This document shows positions 3,889 through 56,474 of a stretch of 64,000 bases of DNA, in pieces. The DNA comes from Azolla caroliniana (taxonomy: Eukaryota; Plantae; Polypodiophyta). The notes beneath the pieces were generated by a model, which saw nothing but the letters and a program-made list of their open reading frames with translations, made no database searches and was not told the origin of the DNA. Made by a program: the position numbers and the translations under genes. Every line of letters begins with the position of its first letter. Positions within the stretch are counted from its first letter, which is position 1. The stretch is from contig JBHGNT010000013.1 of NCBI GenBank assembly GCA_043228905.1, forward strand, positions 16,058,001 through 16,122,000, in the 5' to 3' direction.

Positions 3889-4243
3889 TGTCAAGATTTG
3901 AACTCTTGACATGACATAGTTATAATCTAGTATTATGAGTTAACCAAGATATCTAGTGCATAGTTATGTATGTAATTGATCCTTATTATTTTGCTATCAT
4001 CATGTGCATAGGGGCTCCCTTGTAGTATTTACACTTGGCACATGCATGCATACCTACATGCTCTATTGTAGATTCAAATGCGTGCAACAAGTATGCATGC
4101 CATGTAGTATAAATAGAGGAGATCACCTTGAAGGAATTCAAGGTGAACAACACCAGTTATGGAGTCTTTCCTTTAGTACTATCTTCTTTCTTGTCCATTT
4201 GGTTATCTTCTTCGCTTGTCTCTTGAGCTTATGATCTGTGACA
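3889..4243 (+). repeat. Chromovirus 5' LTR (355 bp)
   Basis: TG...CA ends, TATAAATA at 4108-4115, direct repeat of 19621-19973. Confidence 0.95.
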
Positions 4244-19620: not shown

Positions 19621-19973
19621 TGTCAAGATTCGAACTCTTGACACGACCATGTTATAATCTACTATTATGAGTTAACCAAGATATCTAGTACTAGTTATGT
19701 ATGTAATTGGTCCTTATTATTTTGCTAGCATCATGTGCATAGTTGCTCCCTTGTAGTATTTACACTTGGCACATGCATGCATACCTACATGCTCTATTGT
19801 AGATTCACATGCGTGCAACAAGTATGCATGCCATGTAGTATAAATAGAGGAGTTCACCTTGAAGGAATTCAAGGTGAACAACACCAGTTATGGAGTCTTT
19901 CCTTTAGTACTATCTTCTTTCTTGTCCATTTGGTTATCTTCTTCGTTGTCTCTTGAGTTTATGATCTGTGACA
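19621..19973 (+). repeat. Chromovirus 3' LTR (353 bp)
   Basis: Direct repeat of 3889-4243 with roughly 15 differences. Confidence 0.95.
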
Positions 19974-24546: not shown

Positions 24547-24970
24547 TGTCGTGACTTGAGAATAGGAGAGAGAAAAATAAGATGACAATAGAAGGTAGAG
24601 GGGGGGGGGGGGGGGGGGGGGGGGGGAAGAGAGAGAGAGAGAGAGAAAGAAAGAACACTAGAAATGGAAAGAGAGTTTATATTATAAGAGAGCAAGGATT
24701 ACAAAGAGTAGGCTAAGGGGCTACAAACTGGTGTTGAACCGAATGAGTTGTGATGAATGAATAGACACCTATTTATAGGTCCTTATGGAGTATTCTAGAA
24801 TGTTCTAGAATATTTTAGATATTTATGATATTTAATATAAAAATAACTAATAATACATTTATCATAACTATACATCATATATGTTAGTATAATGGTTAAA
24901 GGTCTAACATATAGACCAAGACGTCTTGGGCTTGAATCCTTGTAAGGACAAAATGTATGTCGTCATGACA
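24547..24970 (-). mobile_element. Solo LTR, gypsy-like (424 bp)
   Basis: TGTCGTGAC...GTCATGACA ends, TSD GTTTG, minus-strand TATAAAT near 24770, G27 run and (GA)n tract. Confidence 0.92.
24885..24940 (+). promoter_or_regulatory. tRNA-like Pol III A/B-box module, antisense within the LTR U3
   Basis: A-box-like TAGTATAATGG, stem GGTCTA/TAGACC, and B-box-like GGCTTGAATCC at tRNA-like spacing (about 45 nt). Confidence 0.6.
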
Positions 24971-41841: not shown

Positions 41842-42584
41842 TGTCGTAGTGTATTTCGTACACTACGTGAAAAACTTATAAAGTACCGATTTAATAAATA
41901 TGAATAAATAGTAGAAAATATTAAAATATATATAACATGCATGACAAGATTCGAACCTTGCACCTCTATGCTAATAATGTAATGTCTTACCATTGCACTA
42001 GCATTTTATTAATGTTAAAAAGTAGATGTTCCACATAGAAAGGTTAGTTCACCTAGGATAAACTTCAGTTAAAAGAAAACGCATGCTAAAAGAAAAAGCT
42101 ACGCATGCACATCTAGCGTGCATGAACGCTATAATCGATAAAAAACGCACAAGTTAGAAAAAGCATGATCACTTTAGATAAAGCATATAGTCTATCTATA
42201 GGAAAAGCATGGAGTCTATAGTTAGAAAAAAAAGCATGGATTACTAAGACTCCCTCATCATTACATAAGGATGGGAGCACAATGTAAAAGGTGTGTGAAA
42301 TATTTGGGAAATTGGATATATTTCCTAAAACACCAATTAATAAACTATACTCGTGGGATTCACGAGATTTCTATATCTTTTTCTTTCAATCTAAATACAT
42401 ATTCTTATCTAAATATTGATTAATCGAATACAATACACTCGTGGGATTCACGAGATTTCTATCTCTCTTTCTAATAATCTATCCATAACTATAAACTTGT
42501 CTCAAATTCTTCCTTTTCCTAGTCGAAAACCCCAACGGTTCCCACCCGACTCACGCAAACGATCTGGCGCCAAAAGGCACGACA
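41842..42584 (+). mobile_element. Solo LTR G1 (743 bp) of the tRNA-Trp-primed gypsy-type family
   Basis: TGTCGTAG...GCACGACA ends, 4-bp TSD ACGT, homologous to 43707-44442, inserted in A2 gag. Confidence 0.92.
41948..42000 (-). promoter_or_regulatory. tRNA-like Pol III A/B-box module, antisense within the G1 LTR (second copy at 43814-43866)
   Basis: Minus strand reads TAGTGCAATGGTAA...GAGGTGCAAGGTTCGAATC, with about 44 nt between the A-box T and the B-box G. Confidence 0.65.
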
Positions 42585-44446
42585 ACGTTGATGGACCTGA
42601 GTGCGTAGCAAATCTCCTTTATCTTGGTGGTGTAGTCTGTAACCGACATGTCTCTTTGCCGGATGTTGTTCAGCTCTTGCCGAAGCTGCAACTTACGGGT
42701 TGTGGTACTTGCGGCGAAAATCTTCCGTAGAATTTCCCAGGCCTCCTTCGGCATCTTTGCATCCTTGATGTAGCTGAGCATCTGATCATGCACACCGGAC
42801 ACGAGACAATACAGTACCCGACTCACTCCTTGCTCCCATACCAGGAAGTCTTTGTGTGACGGCTCCGGTGCTACTTCATTTGTTCCTTCCACGAAGCTCC
42901 AATATCCATGCCCCAGCAAGTACTGGTGCATTTATATGACTAGGACGCACAGTTGCTCCGGTCAAGCTTCTCTATTGGAAGTGAACTTGCCATTCCTCTG
43001 TCCATATCTTCTCTCTATCTGTTGTTACCAGGTTCTAGGGTTCGTTAACGGAAGCAAGTGTCGGCTGTAGAGGTTCTCAACCCTCGCGCTCTGATACCAT
43101 GTGAATGTTAATGTGCGGAAGCATAAGACAGAACTAGCTCAGCCGGATAGCAACAGAAAATGAGATGAAAGTTTTAATGGAGAAGCTTAACACAGAGAGT
43201 ATATACGGGGGAGACAAAGAGAGCAGAACATAAACTCTATTCACAAAATAACTCTCAAACTTTGTACACACAACGTGCTAAACAACACTATTTATACAAG
43301 TCCATAAAGAACTGTCAGAAGTACTGACATGTACTTCAATGCTCATACGTGCGACTGACACTAACTACGAGACAATGATTACCTAGTAGTCTAGGCTACT
43401 ACTAGGCTTCCGGTTCCCGCTCGAATCCAGCTCTCCGATCCATCTCCCTGATCTGACCGGTTGTATCCGGATACCAATCCAGCTCATCCTTCCAGATGCC
43501 GATCTGGCTCAGGCTTATTAAGCCGATATCCAGTTGAGCTTGCTCGCTCAACAGACATGTTGGTGGTTAAAGATCTCTGGTTGCCAATACAGTTTGGAGA
43601 CAAAAGACCGGACAAGATTGATGTCACGACCTGGGAAGTGATGCATATGAAGACAATGAAATACATAAGATGTTTCATTGACATGAGCCTGTACAATAAT
43701 TGACGTTGTCGTAGTGTATTTCGTACACTACATGAAAACTTATAAAGTAACGTTTTAGTAAATATGAAGAAATAGAAGAAAATGTCAAAATAAATAATAC
43801 ATGCATAGGGCAAGGTTCAAACCTTGCACCTCCATGTTAATAACGTAATGTCTTACCATTACACTAGCATTTTATTAGTGTTGAAAAGTAGATGTTCCAC
43901 ATAGAAAGGTAAGTTCACGCTAGGATAAACTTTAGAAAAACGCATGATAAAAGAAAAAGCTACACATGCACATGTAGCGTGCATGAACACTATAGTCAAT
44001 AAAAAAAACGCACAAGTTAGAAAAAGCATGATCACTTTAGATAAAGCATATAGTCTATCTATAGAAAAAGCATGGAGTCTATAGTTAGAGAAAACGCATG
44101 GGTTGCAAAAGACTCTCTCATCTCTATATAAGGATGAGGAGCACAATGTAATAGGTGTGTGAAAAATATTTGGGAAATTGGATATATTTCCTAAAACACC
44201 AATTAATATAATCGTGGGATTCACGAAGTTTTATAATCTATTTCTTTCAATCTAAATACATATTCTTATCTAAATATTGATTAATCGAATACAATACACT
44301 GGTGGGATTCACGAAATTTCTATCTCTCTTTCTAATAATCTATTCATTACTAGCCTCATCTCATATTCTTCTTTCTCCTAGTCCAAAACCTCAGTGGTTC
44401 CCACCCGACTCACGCAACGATCCGGCGCCGAAAGGCACGACACATT

Positions 44447-44464
44447 TGGTGAACCCGACGTGAA
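44447..44464 (+). promoter_or_regulatory. Primer-binding site complementary to the tRNA-Trp 3' end
   Basis: TGGTGAACCCGACGTGAA, 4 nt after the LTR, is complementary to the plant cytosolic tRNA-Trp 3' end (...UUCACGUCGGGUUCACCA, recalled from memory). Confidence 0.85.
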
Positions 44465-46744: not shown

Positions 46745-47245
46745 TGTCGCGGGCACACCAAGCGCAAACTAGGACGGAGCACAGATAATGGGGTTACGAA
46801 CGACGGATGACCTTGGAGCTAGATGTGACAAGGCTAGGAACTCTAGATGATGTGAGCGACATGAGGGGATGAAGATAGAAAAAAAGATCAAGGAGACAAA
46901 GATGAGGCGAAATGAGAATACTAGATTGATGTGTCGATGACTGGTGGTGAATCCCTTGAAAGGAACCAACGATGTTACAAGTATTTATACAAATTCTGAG
47001 ATTGAATATCACTAGAATATACTTGAGAAATATCCCGAGAATATACCCATTTAGAGTATATACCACAAAATAATTCTAGAATATACTAACGACTAGAATA
47101 TTCTTGAATGTGCTATACACTAGACTCTACAATATATACAAGTTCACAATCGAATGTGGACAGTTCACAAGAGTTTCCATATGGTTAACACAACACAATG
47201 TACTGTGTGTGTTAAAAGTCAAAGGTTCGACTCTAAAGTGTGACA
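46745..47245 (-). mobile_element. Solo LTR, gypsy-like (501 bp)
   Basis: TGTCGC...GTGACA ends, TSD CTCGA, minus-strand TATAAAT near 46985. The host protease sequence resumes after it. Confidence 0.88.
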
Positions 47246-47370
47246 CTCGACTCTGGAGTAGCCATGGGTCGTCAAAACGGGCGATGACACCCCTCACCCC
47301 ATCGAACACATCGAAGATGTCCCTCTCAGCCATGTCGGCCAGAAGGGAATCATGAGGAATGTCTTGCATG

Positions 47371-50300
47371 TGTTAATCCTTAGGGCCGGACAATGGCCTA
47401 ACACAGGGTGTCCCCGGAAGACACTTCACCAAAGGGGTGTTACGGCGAAATAACTTAAGACACAACGATTAATCCGACTTAATCAGCTACTTAGCAATAA
47501 GGCATTCACTTAATACATGCATAAGATATAACAATTAATACAGAACGGTAATCAATACGTGAAGATAAAACAAGAAGCTTATATTAATTCTCCGTTAAAG
47601 TTATACATTGTAACCGGGCCTTTATATAGGTCACCGGTGCTGCGTACAAAATGGTGCCAACCAGCACCTGTTCAGAACCGGTCCGGATCCGGATCGGCAT
47701 ACCGATTCTGGTCCGTCCATTCACTACATAATTATAATCTATTCTACTTAATTAAAACATATTCCGAATAACCATCCCTTTCACATTCTGGTCTTTAATC
47801 CTTTGTCAGCCGAGTAACACATGGCACACCCATGGGATAGTACCTTGTACATCGAATCCCACTATTCGGCCCTTATCCTTCGTCCAAGATATTCAGAATA
47901 CTCTGCTCCAGGGTATCCAATGGTTGTTCGGAACTCTGTTGTTGCTACTGATGTGGCCACTGTTGTGGCTGTTGTTGCGGCGGTTGCGGCTGTTGTTGTG
48001 ACTCCAACTCCTCCGACTGTTGCTCCTTAGATGGCGTCTGTTCGGCTCCCGGTACCGGCGGTTGTGGTGGTGATTCCTCCGTTAGCTGCTCCGCCAGATT
48101 TGACTCTAGTTGACTCGCCCCGGCCTTGTCTCCGTCCGATCCTTACTTTGGTGATGGCTCCTCATCGCTGAGGTTGACGGTCACCGCCTACTTTGCTTCT
48201 TCTCTCCGTAGCCTGGTCCGCTCATAGCTCTCAAACTAGATTTGAGCATCCAGTCGATCATCATCTAGTTGTGCTAGAAGTTGCCAGACCACTGTTGACT
48301 GCTCCTCCGCTAGAGTTACAAAATCTTCGGCTAACTCATCTCTTACGGCGGTGAAGTCCTCCTTCGTTAGCATGTAGCAGTCGTCGCCATCCCTCTGCCG
48401 GTTTTCCGCATCCGCCTGTAGCAACTGGAGCTCGGTTGTGTGCTTTGCCCATTTGTCCCACCATTGCGCGGAGCTTTCATCAATCAAGTGTTTGGTCTTG
48501 TTCCTCCATGCCTGGACAATGAACTGGATCCGCTCCAATCCCATCTTAGATTTGTCCTCCGCGGCTTGTCGTTCGTCCTTCAACTGCTTGATCAGTGCCA
48601 CCGTATCCGCCTCCTACTCCCGGTAATGTGACAATTGGGTTTGATAGGTGTTCTACAGCTTGCAAGACCATCGTCGCTCTTTCCTTCTCTTCATAATGCT
48701 GCTTATGGAGCTCCATCCGTTCTTGCGCGGCTTCCTCCAGCAGCGTGGTTCTTTCAGCTCGTTCCTCCGCTAGCGCCGTCTCAACTCGATGCATCTCCTG
48801 TCGGAGCTCTGCCATCTTCTCCTGTTGTTTCTTATGTTCCGTATCCAGGTGCTTGTAGTCCCGGTGCAGGTGCTCAAAATCATCGGTCTTCTGCTTCAGC
48901 TTTTGGTTGAGTTGCCGATGAGCACGGTCTTCCCAATCCTTCTGTTGGCGGAGTTCTTCTTTAAGTCTTTCTATCTCTGTTTCCGCCATTCGTCGTAGCT
49001 TCTCCTTTTCTTGCAGCGCCTTCTCTTTCTCCTCCTTCAGCCAGTCATATGCTTGATGTCCTTTTCGCAGATTCTCTTCTGCCCGGTGGAGGTTCTCAGC
49101 AGTCTTTCGTTGCTCTTCTTCTGCCGCTTTCTTCAAGTCCCGCTCTCGGGTGCGTAATGCTTCCTGCGCGGCCAGTTCATCTCTCAATTCAGCAAGCTCT
49201 TTTGCTTGCGATGCCACTATCTCCAGGACTGGGTCCGTCTCTGGGGTCTTATTGCTATGTACAGGTGTCAAGGTTTCTTTATTCTGTACATCGACCGGAA
49301 TCACCAGTGCTTGGAGTTGTGGTCCGGTTAAGGCCATTTTGGCCAATTCTTCTGTGGCCAGGTCCAAGTCTTGTTCTAGGCTCCGGATCCTTGACCAGGC
49401 CGTCTCTAGTTCTCCAGTTGTGACGAGCAACCGGTCCATCTGCGCTTTCTCTTCCGCCTCTATGTAGTGTACTACTCCAGCAATCTGTTGTCCAATCCAC
49501 CAGAGCCATTGGCTGTCGGTGCCCTGTTGTTGCGTCTGCCCGGAGGGTTAGCTGTTGGTGTCGTTGGCCAGTGGTCGGTTTTGTCCGGTTGTGTTGAGCT
49601 GCAACTCTGGCTCTTGTTGGTGACCACTTTGTTGTTCTAGTTACGGCTCTGTTGGCCGCTCCACCTCTGAATGCTCTTGGCCTGCCGGTGGGGTAGGCAA
49701 CTATACTTCCGGCGCTTGCATTTCGGGTCTTGCCGTATCCTGACCCGCCAGTAGAGGTTGTTGTGCAGGGAGCTCTATGACCGGTTCTGTCCGAACCGGT
49801 TCCGGTTCCATCCTTGGTGCGGGCTACTCAATGCTGGGTACAGGCATTCCATCCTTCTTTGGGTCCGAACGCTCCCCGGCATGTTCGGAGGTGCTTGCCT
49901 TCTGGCGCCGTTGGAGGTGCTCTAACAGTTCCTCCTCCGCTTCCTCCTCCTGAGTCCCGATGTTGATTTTTTCCAAAAACTGTGTTAATCCTTAGGGCCG
50001 GACAATGGCCTAACACAGGGTGTCCCCGGAAGACACTTCACCAAAGGGGTGTTACGACGAGATAACTTAAGACACAACGATTAATCCGACTTAATCGGCT
50101 ACTTAGCAGTAAGGCATTCACTTAATACACACGTAAGATATAACAATTAATACAGAACGGTAATCAATACGTGAAGATAAAACAAGAAGCTTATATTAAT
50201 TCTCCGTTAAAGTTATACATTGTAACCGGGCCTTTGTATAGGTCACCGGTGCTGTGTACAAAACGGTGCCAACCAGCACCTGTTCGGAACCGGTCCAGAT

Positions 50301-50431
50301 CCGGATCGGCATACCGATTCCAGTCTGTCCGTTCACAACATAATTATAATCTATTCTACTTAATTAAAACATATTCCGAATAACCATCCCTTTCACATTC
50401 TGGTCTTTAATCCTTTGTCAGCCAGGTAACA
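47371..50431 (-). mobile_element. Non-autonomous LTR element I (3061 bp) with no gag/pol and only an accessory coiled-coil ORF
   Basis: 449-bp LTRs at 47371-47819 and 49983-50431. TSD GCATG. No RT or integrase motifs in the internal region. Confidence 0.92.
48236..49972 (-). pseudogene. Degenerate accessory ORF: Pro/Glu-rich region followed by a long coiled coil
   Basis: ORFs 48546-49439 (297 aa, E/K/R/L heptad-rich) and 48236-48601. An upstream frame EKINIGTQEEEAEEELL... carries TAG stops. Confidence 0.75.
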
Positions 50432-51360
50432 GCATGTGCCCACAATCACCAAGAACTTGGTGTAATGTCGGCACTGCTATGTTCGCCAGAGGGCAAAAAG
50501 TCGAATCGGACATCGACTTGTGGCACAAGCGGTTCGGCCACGTCAACTTCCCGCGGCTTGCCAAAATTCAGTGGCCGAAATGGCCAAGTCTAGGAAGCTT
50601 GCTAGTTAGGGAAGCATCACCGACTTCCGTTCCCAAAATATTGAAATCGAAGGCGAAACAAGCTCGATTTGATCCATTCAGATGTATGGGGACCGGCGCA
50701 AAATGTGAGTATCGGTGGAAGTCTTTACTTTACCTTCATTGATGATTACACTCAGCACACTTAGGCGTGCTTGATCGAGAAGAAAACCGAAGTCTTCTGC
50801 GTGGAAGCACGCTACGGTGTACCAGAAAAGTACTGTTTTTGGCCACAAAAATTGTCAGTACATTCGATACTGTTAGTACTGAATAATTCAGAAAAAAAAA
50901 ATCAGAGAAAAAAAAAATCGATTTTGGAGAGTGGGGTGACTATAGTACAAGTGTCATTTACTACAAGGAGTGGGGGGAACACGTGAGGAGATGTTCTTTC
51001 CATTTTGGGGGCTATTTTCCCCTCACGTCGTTTTTGGCGGTTCCCCTCATACTCCTCTTCCTCTATCCCTTTGAGCTCTTCATCTCAAACATCCATGTCA
51101 CATTTCTGCTTTTCCTCCAATCTAAGAGTTTTGTTAGGGTTTAGGGAGCAAATCTCAAACATCCATGTCAAGTTGGAGCTTTTGAGTTAAGGATTTTTGG
51201 TTTTTTTAGGGTTTCTGTTTTTGTTAGGGTTTAGGTTGAGGAACAAAGACTGTTCTAAGGCCTCTTATAACAGCCAATAGTGACTTCTTCGACAATGAAT
51301 TTCTTACTTCCACCGATTGCATTTTATGTCGTGGTGATTTGGGCCTTTTTCCATCGAGAC

Positions 51361-53841: not shown

Positions 53842-55381
53842 TAGTACTATCATGTCACGTGAATCTGTGTTTATTATCTTTTAATCCATGTGAAGTGTTC
53901 TCCATAGACAAAGTGTACTATGTTGTGTGTTGTATCTTTACTAAATCAGTATTTACTGAAGAATGTAAAGTACTCGTATTGTACTCTATAGTATTGTCCG
54001 TCCTTAAGAGAATTGTACTAATTATCTTTAATCCATGTAAAGTGTTCTCCATAGACACATTGTACTATGTTGTGTGTTGTATCTGTACTAAATCAATATT
54101 TACAGAAGGATGTAAAGTACTCGTCTTGTACTCATAGTATTGTCCGTCCTTAAGAGAATTGTACTAATTATCTTTTAATCCATGTGAAGTGTTCTCCATA
54201 GACACATTGTACTATGTTGTGTGTTGTATCTATACTATGTTGTGTTTATAGAAGGATGTAAAGTACTCGTCTTGTACTCATAGTATTGTCCATCCTTAAG
54301 AGAATTGTACTAATTATCTTTTAATCCATGTGAAGTGTTCTCCATAGACACATTGTACTATGTTGTATGTTGTATTTGTACTAAATCAGTATTTACTGAA
54401 AGATGTAAAGTACTCGTCTTGTACTCATAGTATTTTCTGTCCTTAAGAGAATTGTACTAATCATCTTTTAATCCATGTGAAGTGTTCTCCATAGACACAT
54501 TGTACTATGTTGTGTGTTGTATCTGTACTAAATCAGTATTTACTCAACGTGTACTCATAGTATTGACCGTCCTTAAGAGAATTGTACTAATTATCTTTTA
54601 ATCCATGTTGAGGGTTTTCCATGGACACTGTATTGTACTATGTGTTGTATCTGTACTAAAGAAGTAATTATCGAAGGATGTAAAGTACATGTCTTTTACT
54701 CATAGTACTGTCCTAGATTGAAGAGTTTGTACTAATTATCTATTAATCAATGTTGAGTGTTCTCCATGAACACACTGCATTGTACTTGGTGTTGTATCTA
54801 TACTAAATCAGTAATTATCGGAAGATGTAAAGTACATGTCTTGTACTCATAGTACTGTCTTATATTGAAGAGTTCATACTACTTATCTATTAATCCATGC
54901 TTAGCGTTCTCCATGAATACACTGTATTGTACTATGTGTTGTATCTATACTAAATCAGTGTTTATTGGGGGATGTAAAGTACATGTGGTGTAGTACTAAT
55001 TATCTTCTAAGGAGGGTTGTGTTCTCCGTGGACACATTGTACTGTATTGTGTATTGTATCTGTACTAAATCAGTATTAATGAATGTAAAGTACTCGTCGT
55101 CAGCAACATAGTACTATCTGATATTGAAGAGTTTGTACTATTTATCTGTTAATTCATGTAGAGTGTTTTCCATGAATTCATTGTACTATGCTTTGTGTTG
55201 TATCCATACTAAATTAGTATTAATGGATGCCAAGTTCACATGGTTGACAACATAGTACTATTTATCTTTTAATAAGTGTAGAGTGTTCTCAATGGATACG
55301 TTGTGCTATGCTTTGTTTTGTATTTGTACTAAATCAGTATTAATGGATGTGTAGTACTCTCGATTGACAACATAGTACTAA
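53842..55381. repeat. Intronic satellite-like array, ~147-bp monomer, about 11 copies
   Basis: Monomer starts (TAGTA..) at 53842, 53989, 54135, 54281, 54428, 54558, 54703, 54850, 54991, 55109 and 55253. Confidence 0.93.
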
Positions 55382-56474
55382 TTTTATTGGAAACCTGAGA
55401 TACAAAAGCAGGTATTTCTCCTTATTCAACATTCGTATGCAATGGAACTACTTCGGGTCTGGACATGGAAAAGGAGAGCATGATGGCGCGGGGGTTGTGA
55501 TCAAACGTGCCCTTACAAGTGAGCAGTTGGATAATAATGGTGCTAAGTTACAAAATGCACATGATGTTGTGCAGTGGCTAACATGGAAGATGTCAAATGA
55601 TGGTAAGAACAGATTGTTTGTTGAAGTTCGCGCTGATGAGGTTGATAGAACTAAATCATATGGTTGTAAATCCGTGAAAGGCACACGCAGCACCCATTGT
55701 GTATTAGGGTTTAGCCGCAAGGACACAACACACTTGTTACTCCGTACTTTATCATGCTTTTGTTCCATGTGTATAGATGAAGCTTGGGATAAATGCATCA
55801 ACCCATCAATAGTCGAGCCCTGGAAGCTGCAGAAGCTTGAGCCTGAACGACAAGATGATATTGAAGAGGATGCGCATTCAAACGATATTGTATACTACAA
55901 CCAACATCACGACTTGGCAGTTTTATTGGAAGTTGGAGATCATTTTGCAGTGCTCAAATCTCCTCGGAATGAAGATTTAGAAGACTACTACATTGTGGTG
56001 TGAAAGCAAGGCAAGACATTATTGAAAGAAGTGGTGAGGGATGGCTGGGGCAACAATTTCAACCTTGGTGAGTCTGTCGTGTATGGAAACTATTATGCAA
56101 AGTTGCCGCAGTGCAAGAACACATATGCATTACTAAAAGAAGCACTGATCGCAATAATCTACGCTAATGCCATTCTTGCAATCAAATTCAATATGACTCT
56201 AGCAAAGCACAAGGTTAAGGGATACAATATTGTCTACAAGGTCCCCCAAGAGATTCATGAGCACATATTAGGGGAGGTCTCTCTATTTAATGCTTGAAAG
56301 TCACCCTATCAATACATTTTACTAGAAAACTGAAAAACATCCACTTGTAGTTCACTATTTGTTGTATTGATATATTAATTTTGATGATTGACAAATGAAT
56401 CGATATAATTCCTCTTTCTTCTATTATGTATTATGAATCGATATATTTGATGTATTGAGACTATTTATTGAGCT

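Follow-up and report, generated by a model that had tools for sequence, protein, structure and literature searches.

The sequence evidence supports the conclusion that a tRNA-type Pol III promoter, recognisable by its A and B boxes and by the spacing between them, has been kept across diverged gypsy lineages of LTR retrotransposons in Azolla caroliniana, in a fixed orientation, and is nearly absent from copia elements. We consider it fairly probable that this module is a TFIIIC/Pol III site under selection.

Modules and host elements in the window

The window, that is, the whole stretch of 64 kb that was analysed, is a nest of LTR retrotransposons in a genome of 523 Mb. The module was found in the following LTRs:

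24547-24970, minus strand: solo LTR of a Tcn1-type chromovirus, TATA box at 24770-24777; inserted into a copia element with a 5-bp target duplication
3889-4243, plus strand: 5' LTR of the window chromovirus, with an 11-nt self-primer complement directly after it
19621-19973, plus strand: 3' LTR of the window chromovirus, after the chromodomain frame and the polypurine tract (PPT)
41842-42584, plus strand: Phygy solo LTR G1, with a 4-bp NCGN target duplication
43707-44442, plus strand: 5' LTR of the Phygy element G2, which is truncated (to 45168); tRNA-Trp primer site at 44447-44463
46745-47245, minus strand: Tcn1-type solo LTR within a copia element; 5-bp target duplication

Passages of Neumann et al. 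(2019, PMC6317226) and Novikova et al. (2010, PMC2864245) characterise Tcn1 elements by self-priming and a chromodomain, and Phygy elements by their NCGN target. The window chromovirus encodes gag, RT, integrase and a chromodomain. The family of the solo LTR 24547-24970 (hereafter, the 24547 family) shares with it the PPT that precedes the copies; moreover, what comes directly after its 5' LTRs is not a tRNA site but an 11-nt complement of the R start, and the LTRs of a pair are spaced by about 5.3 kb, so we regard it as a self-primed Tcn1-type family. Such an 11-nt complement to the R start was present in the two Tcn1 families tested. Chromodomain and self-priming apply to the hosts at 3889, 19621, 24547 and 46745, to the last by likeness only, as it was assigned to Tcn1 through its resemblance to PPT-anchored relatives (L063 and L065 follow a Tcn1 PPT). 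The hosts at 41842 and 43707 show the NCGN target duplication, and the G primer site matches tRNA-Trp genes of the genome; their assignment to Phygy is based on these two features, the target site and the primer site.

Several points of the preliminary description had to be revised here. The two G LTRs are not a pair: one is a solo LTR (41842-42584), the other opens a separate truncated element (43707-44442). What had been given as a solo LTR at 47174-47233 does contain a module, albeit with a poor A box, but the LTR itself spans 46745-47245. Finally, the four different families turned out to be three of Tcn1 and one of Phygy; since the three Tcn1 families are related, they do not make four independent cases.

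All six modules, including those claimed for the G LTRs, the 47-kb solo LTR and the chromovirus LTRs, were located, each of them in U3:

24885-24938, plus strand: module of the 24547 LTR; A box (24885-24896) and B box (24929-24938) with a spacer between them; G18-to-G53 spacing of 36
3895-3954, minus strand: module of the chromovirus 5' LTR; long-spacing type (42), weak A box, B box 6 nt from the LTR end
19627-19686, minus strand: module of the chromovirus 3' LTR
41948-42000, minus strand: G1 module; strong A and B boxes, spacing 35, four-T run 21 nt behind the B box
43814-43866, minus strand: G2 module; T at position 56
47174-47233, plus strand: module of the 47-kb LTR, 12 nt from its end; long-spacing type, with a poor A box and a good B box

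As had been proposed, every module (6/6) is antisense to the TATA box of its own LTR, and lies upstream of it. The spacing is tRNA-like as well: G18 and G53 are separated by 34-36 or 41-43, compared with 34-52 in host tRNA genes, and the value of 36 at 24885 is that of class I tRNA genes. In this LTR, the A-box-like letters begin at 24885 as described, and the B box ends at 24938 on the plus strand, 32 nt from the U3 end. A distance of about 30 nt is, however, peculiar to this copy, the others lying 6, 6, 12, 106 and 107 nt from the end; a position near the LTR end holds in Tcn1 only, while in other Phygy families the distance reaches several hundred nucleotides. The copy at 24885-24938 carries T at position 56, where the CpG is kept in 74 of the first 100 family copies listed; with this position decayed, it is probably a weak site.

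In a test with 100 dinucleotide shuffles per LTR, the expected enrichment over shuffled sequence was observed both for the LTRs at 24547 and 41842 (p = 0.01) and for the clusters that include the chromovirus and 47-kb LTRs (p = 0.02). The reported absence from copia LTRs also stood, with no module in the seven window copia LTRs scanned. The modules are not confined to dead or non-autonomous elements, because a young Phygy copy (L387), with LTRs 99.7% identical and the module in both of them, has open frames of 686 and 1251 aa (gag and pol, including RT). The shortest derivatives among the module hosts measure 2.5-2.8 kb from LTR start to LTR start.

Some further features were recorded in these LTRs and around them. 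The chromovirus LTR opens with a perfect 8-bp hairpin (3889-3911 and 19621-19643), the loop of which is the B-box core, and in one locus (L077) this hairpin end is duplicated. In another (L012), a 24547-family LTR directly follows the first part of another LTR from that family, in which the break falls at the B box. The window also contains an element with 455-bp LTRs (47369-50436), in which no tRNA primer site was recognised and whose internal frames had no Pfam match, and an array of about ten 147-bp repeats (53873-55383).

Distribution across the genome

LTRs were sampled by features other than the boxes: 50 Tcn1 3' LTRs by their PPT (554 sites vs. 2 for the control), 30 Phygy 5' LTRs by their primer site (5,561 sites), 30 copia-type PPT sites, 30 Met-primer sites and 16 LTRs of the window. 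One member per cluster was scanned on both strands with a matrix built from host tRNA genes, against 100 dinucleotide shuffles, and a module was scored at antisense p ≤ 0.05 together with a B score ≥ 6; twenty 10-kb stretches with few intact elements were left out of the counts. Nearly all Tcn1 LTR clusters (15/16) carried the module, with the B box 5-52 nt from the U3 end. The corresponding figure was 1/33 for the copia, Met-primed or unclassified clusters, some of which are AT-rich, while two (L138, L139) may not be LTRs and the Met-primed loci are not confirmed as copia. Among the 22 Phygy clusters six scored, and five of these are U3 modules, in LTRs with a GC content of 0.33-0.40; the sixth (L118; score 27.6, spacing 53), which has no LTR start and whose downstream frame is not Phygy gag, was not counted. 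The other 17 Phygy clusters have a GC content of at least 0.47. On the sense strand, p ≤ 0.05 was reached in 1/16 Tcn1, 3/22 Phygy and 1/33 control clusters. Fisher's test gives p = 1.6e-10, a value that is overstated because the clusters are related.

A tight A-gap-B pattern had 1,758 matches in the genome vs. none for the reversed control. The gap was allowed to vary from 22 to 45, yet among the 100 matches listed nearly all agree exactly with the tRNA length, and their middle parts differ widely. The first 30 of the 1,758 were classified, and all proved to be antisense in gypsy LTRs (28 Phygy-type, 2 Tcn1), which argues against the modules being private SINE insertions. The Phygy modules among them are about 110-730 nt away from the U3 end; where a TATA match was found, it mostly follows 230-330 nt downstream of the module. 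The unrooted tree of Phygy gag, in which row L212 is the gag of another element and L092 and L101 are off-frame, contains at least three diverged module-bearing groups. All the same, the module is dispensable, as it is absent from 17/22 Phygy clusters, all copia families and several Tcn1-like clades.

Phygy LTRs (L091-L120) divide into those with an AT-rich U3 and a module and those with a GC-rich U3 and none. In some module-bearing Phygy LTRs, a GC-rich block of CCGG repeats, like the repeats of the window copia LTRs, lies between the LTR end and the module. One Phygy LTR (L100) has two antisense modules (at about 180 and 340 of the LTR) and a third tRNA-like stretch in sense orientation downstream of the TATA box (700-780). 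Outside LTRs, one to three tandem A/B modules occur in an AT-rich, MITE-like DNA transposon of 0.7-1.1 kb (L276-L278, L283-L285, L288, L293, L295, L296, L300); the L276 group shows terminal inverted repeats and apparent target duplications of 8-9 bp. The genome (G000) also contains large tandem clusters of tRNA-Asp, tRNA-Trp and tRNA-Lys genes, many copies of which are degenerate (C3: 14.64-15.39 Mb; C8: 17.80-17.82 Mb; C16: 4.99-5.11 Mb; C5: 17.99 Mb).

Conservation between and within families

Of 23 modules, 20 non-redundant ones were compared in tRNA register; L163, L156 and L063 were dropped because the scan had chosen a wrong site or A box. The G18-G53 spacing is 34-36 in 14 of them and 41-43 in 6. 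Conservation by position tracks that of host tRNA genes (Spearman 0.56, n = 20). Positions 53-58 and 61 of the B box are kept in 80-100% of the modules, partly by ascertainment, and the A box is good in the short-spacing families and weak or poorly scoring in the long-spacing ones. A-box variants differ by family and are of the kinds seen in real tRNA genes, and the kept G46-T47 corresponds to the GTC signature of intragenic B boxes (PMC3159450).

A free alignment, not anchored on the boxes, was made of 20 PPT-anchored Tcn1 LTR ends (12 from this genome and 8 metagenomic). Pairwise identity amounted to 0.89 in the A core, 0.72 in the whole A box and 0.77 in the B box; the variable loop reached 0.63 and the spacer 0.50, and values in the flanks were as low as 0.35-0.46 (0.43 upstream, 0.35 downstream).

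The stems of a tRNA have left almost no trace. Pairing in the 20 modules vs. their shuffles was 0.57/0.53 for the D stem, 0.31/0.43 for the anticodon stem and 0.62/0.64 for the T stem, and the acceptor stem (0.36 vs. 0.30 shuffled) shows a faint excess at most; stem pairing in real tRNAs is 0.86-1.00, and 0.99 for the acceptor stem. The stem GGTCTA/TAGACC, to which the preliminary description drew attention, is present at 24901-24906 and 24912-24917, but its conservation is at chance level, with 53% of 108 cells paired vs. 54% in shuffles; as an anticodon arm it is out of register and unconserved. ARAGORN detected no tRNA in the window, and Rfam had no match there. With these two results and the shuffle-level pairing, a functional tRNA or tRNA mimic is ruled out. 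The pattern of conservation is, judging by the aligned letters, what a DNA promoter element would show; a folded RNA or a site for a single tRNA would be expected to look different.

Four-T runs follow the B box at 3-92 nt in 8/8 Phygy modules, a raw count from AT-rich DNA, where T runs are common. No T4 run lies behind the module inside the LTR in 12/12 Tcn1 cases.

Within families, where the preliminary description had proposed to measure box conservation, it is seen in one case and absent in the other. For the chromovirus family, 91 of the first 100 copies listed (of 515 matches) retain the B-box CpG vs. 53 for a CpG 12 nt away, counted by eye and against this single control site, which is possibly not ancestral. 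Variants of the control CpG are often common to both LTRs of an element, and the box is so close to the LTR end (6-15 nt) that its conservation might equally be due to integrase constraints. The 24547 family, which has C at position 54 of the B box, shows no difference: the B-box CpG is intact in 74 and a neighbouring CpG in 77 of the first 100 copies listed (of 136 matches). Shared variants are not depleted in its boxes either (8 in 23 columns vs. 34 in 133), and one LTR pair shares C56T. On a tree of 20 copies of this family, C56T requires 4 changes vs. 5.9 when shuffled (38/500), with one starred branch. By the counts of intact CpGs, the 24547 family shows no within-family selection. Among Tcn1 copies, C56T was found in 10/53 and the tolerated G57A in 5/53, a ratio that counts against selection on the B box.

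Relatives in other genomes

Among 80 metagenome loci related to the Tcn1 integrase, 11 carry the module immediately behind the PPT (L307, L310, L318, L326, L328-L332, L335, L338), including two pairs of near-copies. Their integrase cores are 61-80% identical to the query, and the 11 loci sit in the two integrase groups that hold the families of this genome (the position of L310 in the tree is a frameshift artefact). A further 15 of the 80, from other integrase groups, were labelled as having an LTR start without a module, some of these starts being doubtful; most of the loci beyond the 11 and the 15 could not be judged. The module is thus present beyond this genome yet not universal in Tcn1-like elements. 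One locus (L156) has lost the inter-box spacer, which its metagenome relatives L328 and L330 keep in full. A search of viral contigs returned no relative. Pieces of related LTRs also occur in the contigs of four RNA runs from related organisms; the B-box end is covered in X1 and X4, with no difference listed, but contigs carry no strand, start or level and no conclusion is based on them.

Proposed function and its alternatives

The module may bear on how elements inserted in silent chromatin stay transcribable. That tRNA genes can act as barriers has been established chiefly in yeasts and mammals. We tentatively propose that the module may well be kept as a TFIIIC DNA site that would protect the Pol II promoter of the element against silent chromatin in the flanks. 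TFIIIC on antisense A and B boxes would put TFIIIB on the side towards the Pol II TATA box, some 100-300 nt off, and thereby create a back-to-back promoter pair with open DNA between the two. A Pol III transcript, if there is any, would head away from the Pol II start; in Phygy it would stop at the T run within the LTR, and in Tcn1 it would leave the LTR. Standing between the flank and the Pol II promoter, the TFIIIC/TFIIIB complex could keep U3 open, and every new copy would bring its own barrier into silent regions. Such regions are thought to be targeted by chromodomain integrases.

Several published observations fit this proposal. According to passages of PMC12409998, TFIIIC has nanomolar affinity for the B box, tolerates spacings of 32-93 bp and positions TFIIIB upstream of the A box; in yeasts, both tRNA genes and extra TFIIIC (ETC) sites function as heterochromatin barriers. 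Plant tRNA genes are described with the same boxes (in part of PMC13578239), and the moss element RLG1, which has a chromodomain and is located in heterochromatic islands, is reported to be transcribed nonetheless (in part of PMC7466625). The passages found on plant tRNA genes contain no test of barrier activity.

The module is likely to have arisen when U3 captured a tRNA gene or SINE head long ago, in one event or a few. One might suppose that it has been a passenger ever since: fixed in an ancestral U3, now decaying, and surviving only in antisense because in the other orientation a Pol III promoter would interfere with the element. The neutral-looking decay of the 24547 family and the loss of the module from whole clades agree with this, and a SINE head would have brought in intact boxes with the stems lost beforehand. 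We nevertheless hold it to be unlikely, given that the boxes retain an identity of 0.77-0.89 across lineages vs. 0.35-0.46 in the flanks and that the chromovirus family shows the CpG contrast. None of the 30 sampled matches was a free SINE; the hallmarks of SINE2 elements (body, tail, target duplication, free copies) were lacking in these first 30 of the 1,758 matches, all of which lie in LTRs, and a B box 6-12 nt from the LTR end, as in some families, leaves no space for a SINE body. Selection is therefore likely in some lineages at least, as far as such patterns can tell. Its object might be an RNA instead of a bound protein, that is, a short antisense U3 RNA made by Pol III in Phygy or, from the Tcn1 3' LTR, a transcript running off into the PPT and the end of pol, regulating expression or copy number. 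TFIIIC binding alone would not require an A box, and A boxes are kept as well as B boxes; the T runs behind all eight Phygy modules point the same way, though such runs are common in AT-rich DNA. With a T4 run within the LTR in 0/12 Tcn1 modules and no conserved fold, we regard an RNA product as rather unlikely.

The U3 position and the antisense strand would be accounted for directly if the module acted in genomic RNA as the complement of the D and T loops of a tRNA, aiding priming or strand transfer as the bipartite site in the U3 of Ty3 does; partial accounts of Ty3 (PMC5371799) and Drosophila Gypsy (PMC1635307) provide precedents. One Phygy module even has seven letters in register in common with tRNA-Trp. 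However, among 18 tRNAs, tRNA-Trp ranked 2, 4, 4, 4, 12, 12, 16 and 17 by duplex energy with the eight Phygy modules, never first, and its longest exact matches are 6-9 nt, so that derivation from, or pairing with, the primer tRNA-Trp is unsupported. Both Tcn1 families tested have no primer tRNA at all, since they are self-primed through the 11-nt complement to the R start, and the MITE-like DNA transposon with its similar box pair has no RNA stage, which also counts against annealing. We find this role quite improbable. Ty3 uses tRNA genes as insertion targets, and the module might likewise be a landing pad, recruiting TFIIIB and so attracting Pol III-seeking elements or the element's own integrase. 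This seems highly improbable: in a search with 14 of the 18 reference LTRs, not including the chromovirus family, none of 85 LTR copies with a module showed an LTR-element junction immediately upstream of the A box.

Returning to the TFIIIC shield, it is possible, if rather doubtful, that autonomous gypsy elements of two unrelated lineages built a portable TFIIIC barrier into their U3 as an alternative to GC-rich U3 designs. If true, no other class of TFIIIC sites in the genome would be as large as these LTRs, with thousands of sites, and they would test naturally whether tRNA-type barriers work in plants. A lineage-wide Pol III promoter of fixed orientation in autonomous plant LTRs would be a concrete candidate mechanism, for which natural controls exist in sister families without the module and in copies with a decayed position 56.

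Comparison with known systems

The modules have the features of a type 2 Pol III promoter, namely, A and B boxes with the invariant tRNA positions and a box spacing within the tolerated range, but do not fold into the cloverleaf of a tRNA gene. They share with ETC sites, as these are presented for yeasts and mammals in passages of PMC12409998, the central B box, the lack of a functional tRNA product and a proposed barrier role. ETC sites are, however, fixed host loci defined by ChIP, while the modules are mobile, include an A box and are predicted from sequence.

The bipartite primer site of Ty3 in S. cerevisiae and the second primer site of Drosophila Gypsy are likewise complements of a tRNA arm in or near U3 or the 3' end (in parts of PMC5371799 and PMC1635307, respectively). 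Those sites match the primer tRNA of the element itself; the modules match no single tRNA, and most of the tested hosts have no tRNA primer. In HIV-1, U3-R contains a tRNA-Lys3-like sequence.

The text passages describing Tcn1 and Phygy (PMC6317226, PMC2864245) mention no tRNA-like boxes in their LTRs, and a partly available preprint on sugar beet (10.64898/2026.03.01.708851) mentions only Cassandra and Helenus/Ajax. We found no report of antisense boxes in autonomous Tcn1 or Phygy LTRs in a literature search of mainly open-access papers; the Helenus and REXdb supplements may list such LTRs.

The closest parallel is offered by Helenus, as portrayed in passages of Kojima 2024 (PMC10886601), where these TRIMs are equated with TRIMp3 and grouped with Cassandra and Ajax. 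Helenus was overlooked in the preliminary description, whose term "undescribed system" is too strong, as these elements are a known case of tRNA-derived A and B boxes within LTRs. According to the same passages, "not a few" Repbase LTRs contain part of a tRNA, of which only those under 1000 bp were pursued, and a SINE insertion into the LTR is proposed as the origin of the Helenus boxes. Common to Helenus and the modules are tRNA-derived sequence in the LTRs, conservation around the A and B boxes and the lack of a functional tRNA (PMC10886601). Helenus elements are non-autonomous and 311-1263 bp long, whereas the hosts described here are gag-pol elements of 5-8 kb with a Pol II TATA box; the Helenus boxes are proposed to transcribe the element itself, whereas ours point away from it. 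The orientation of the Helenus boxes is absent from the text of that paper, and a sense orientation is implied by its model (PMC10886601). Our hosts thus have A and B boxes in both LTRs, as Helenus does, without the short non-autonomous structure or the element-ward promoter. The idea behind TRIMp3, in which short parasites rely on the boxes as a promoter of their own, would thereby be carried over to full elements whose boxes face outward, and the new points are the antisense orientation, the autonomous hosts and the lineage-wide spread.
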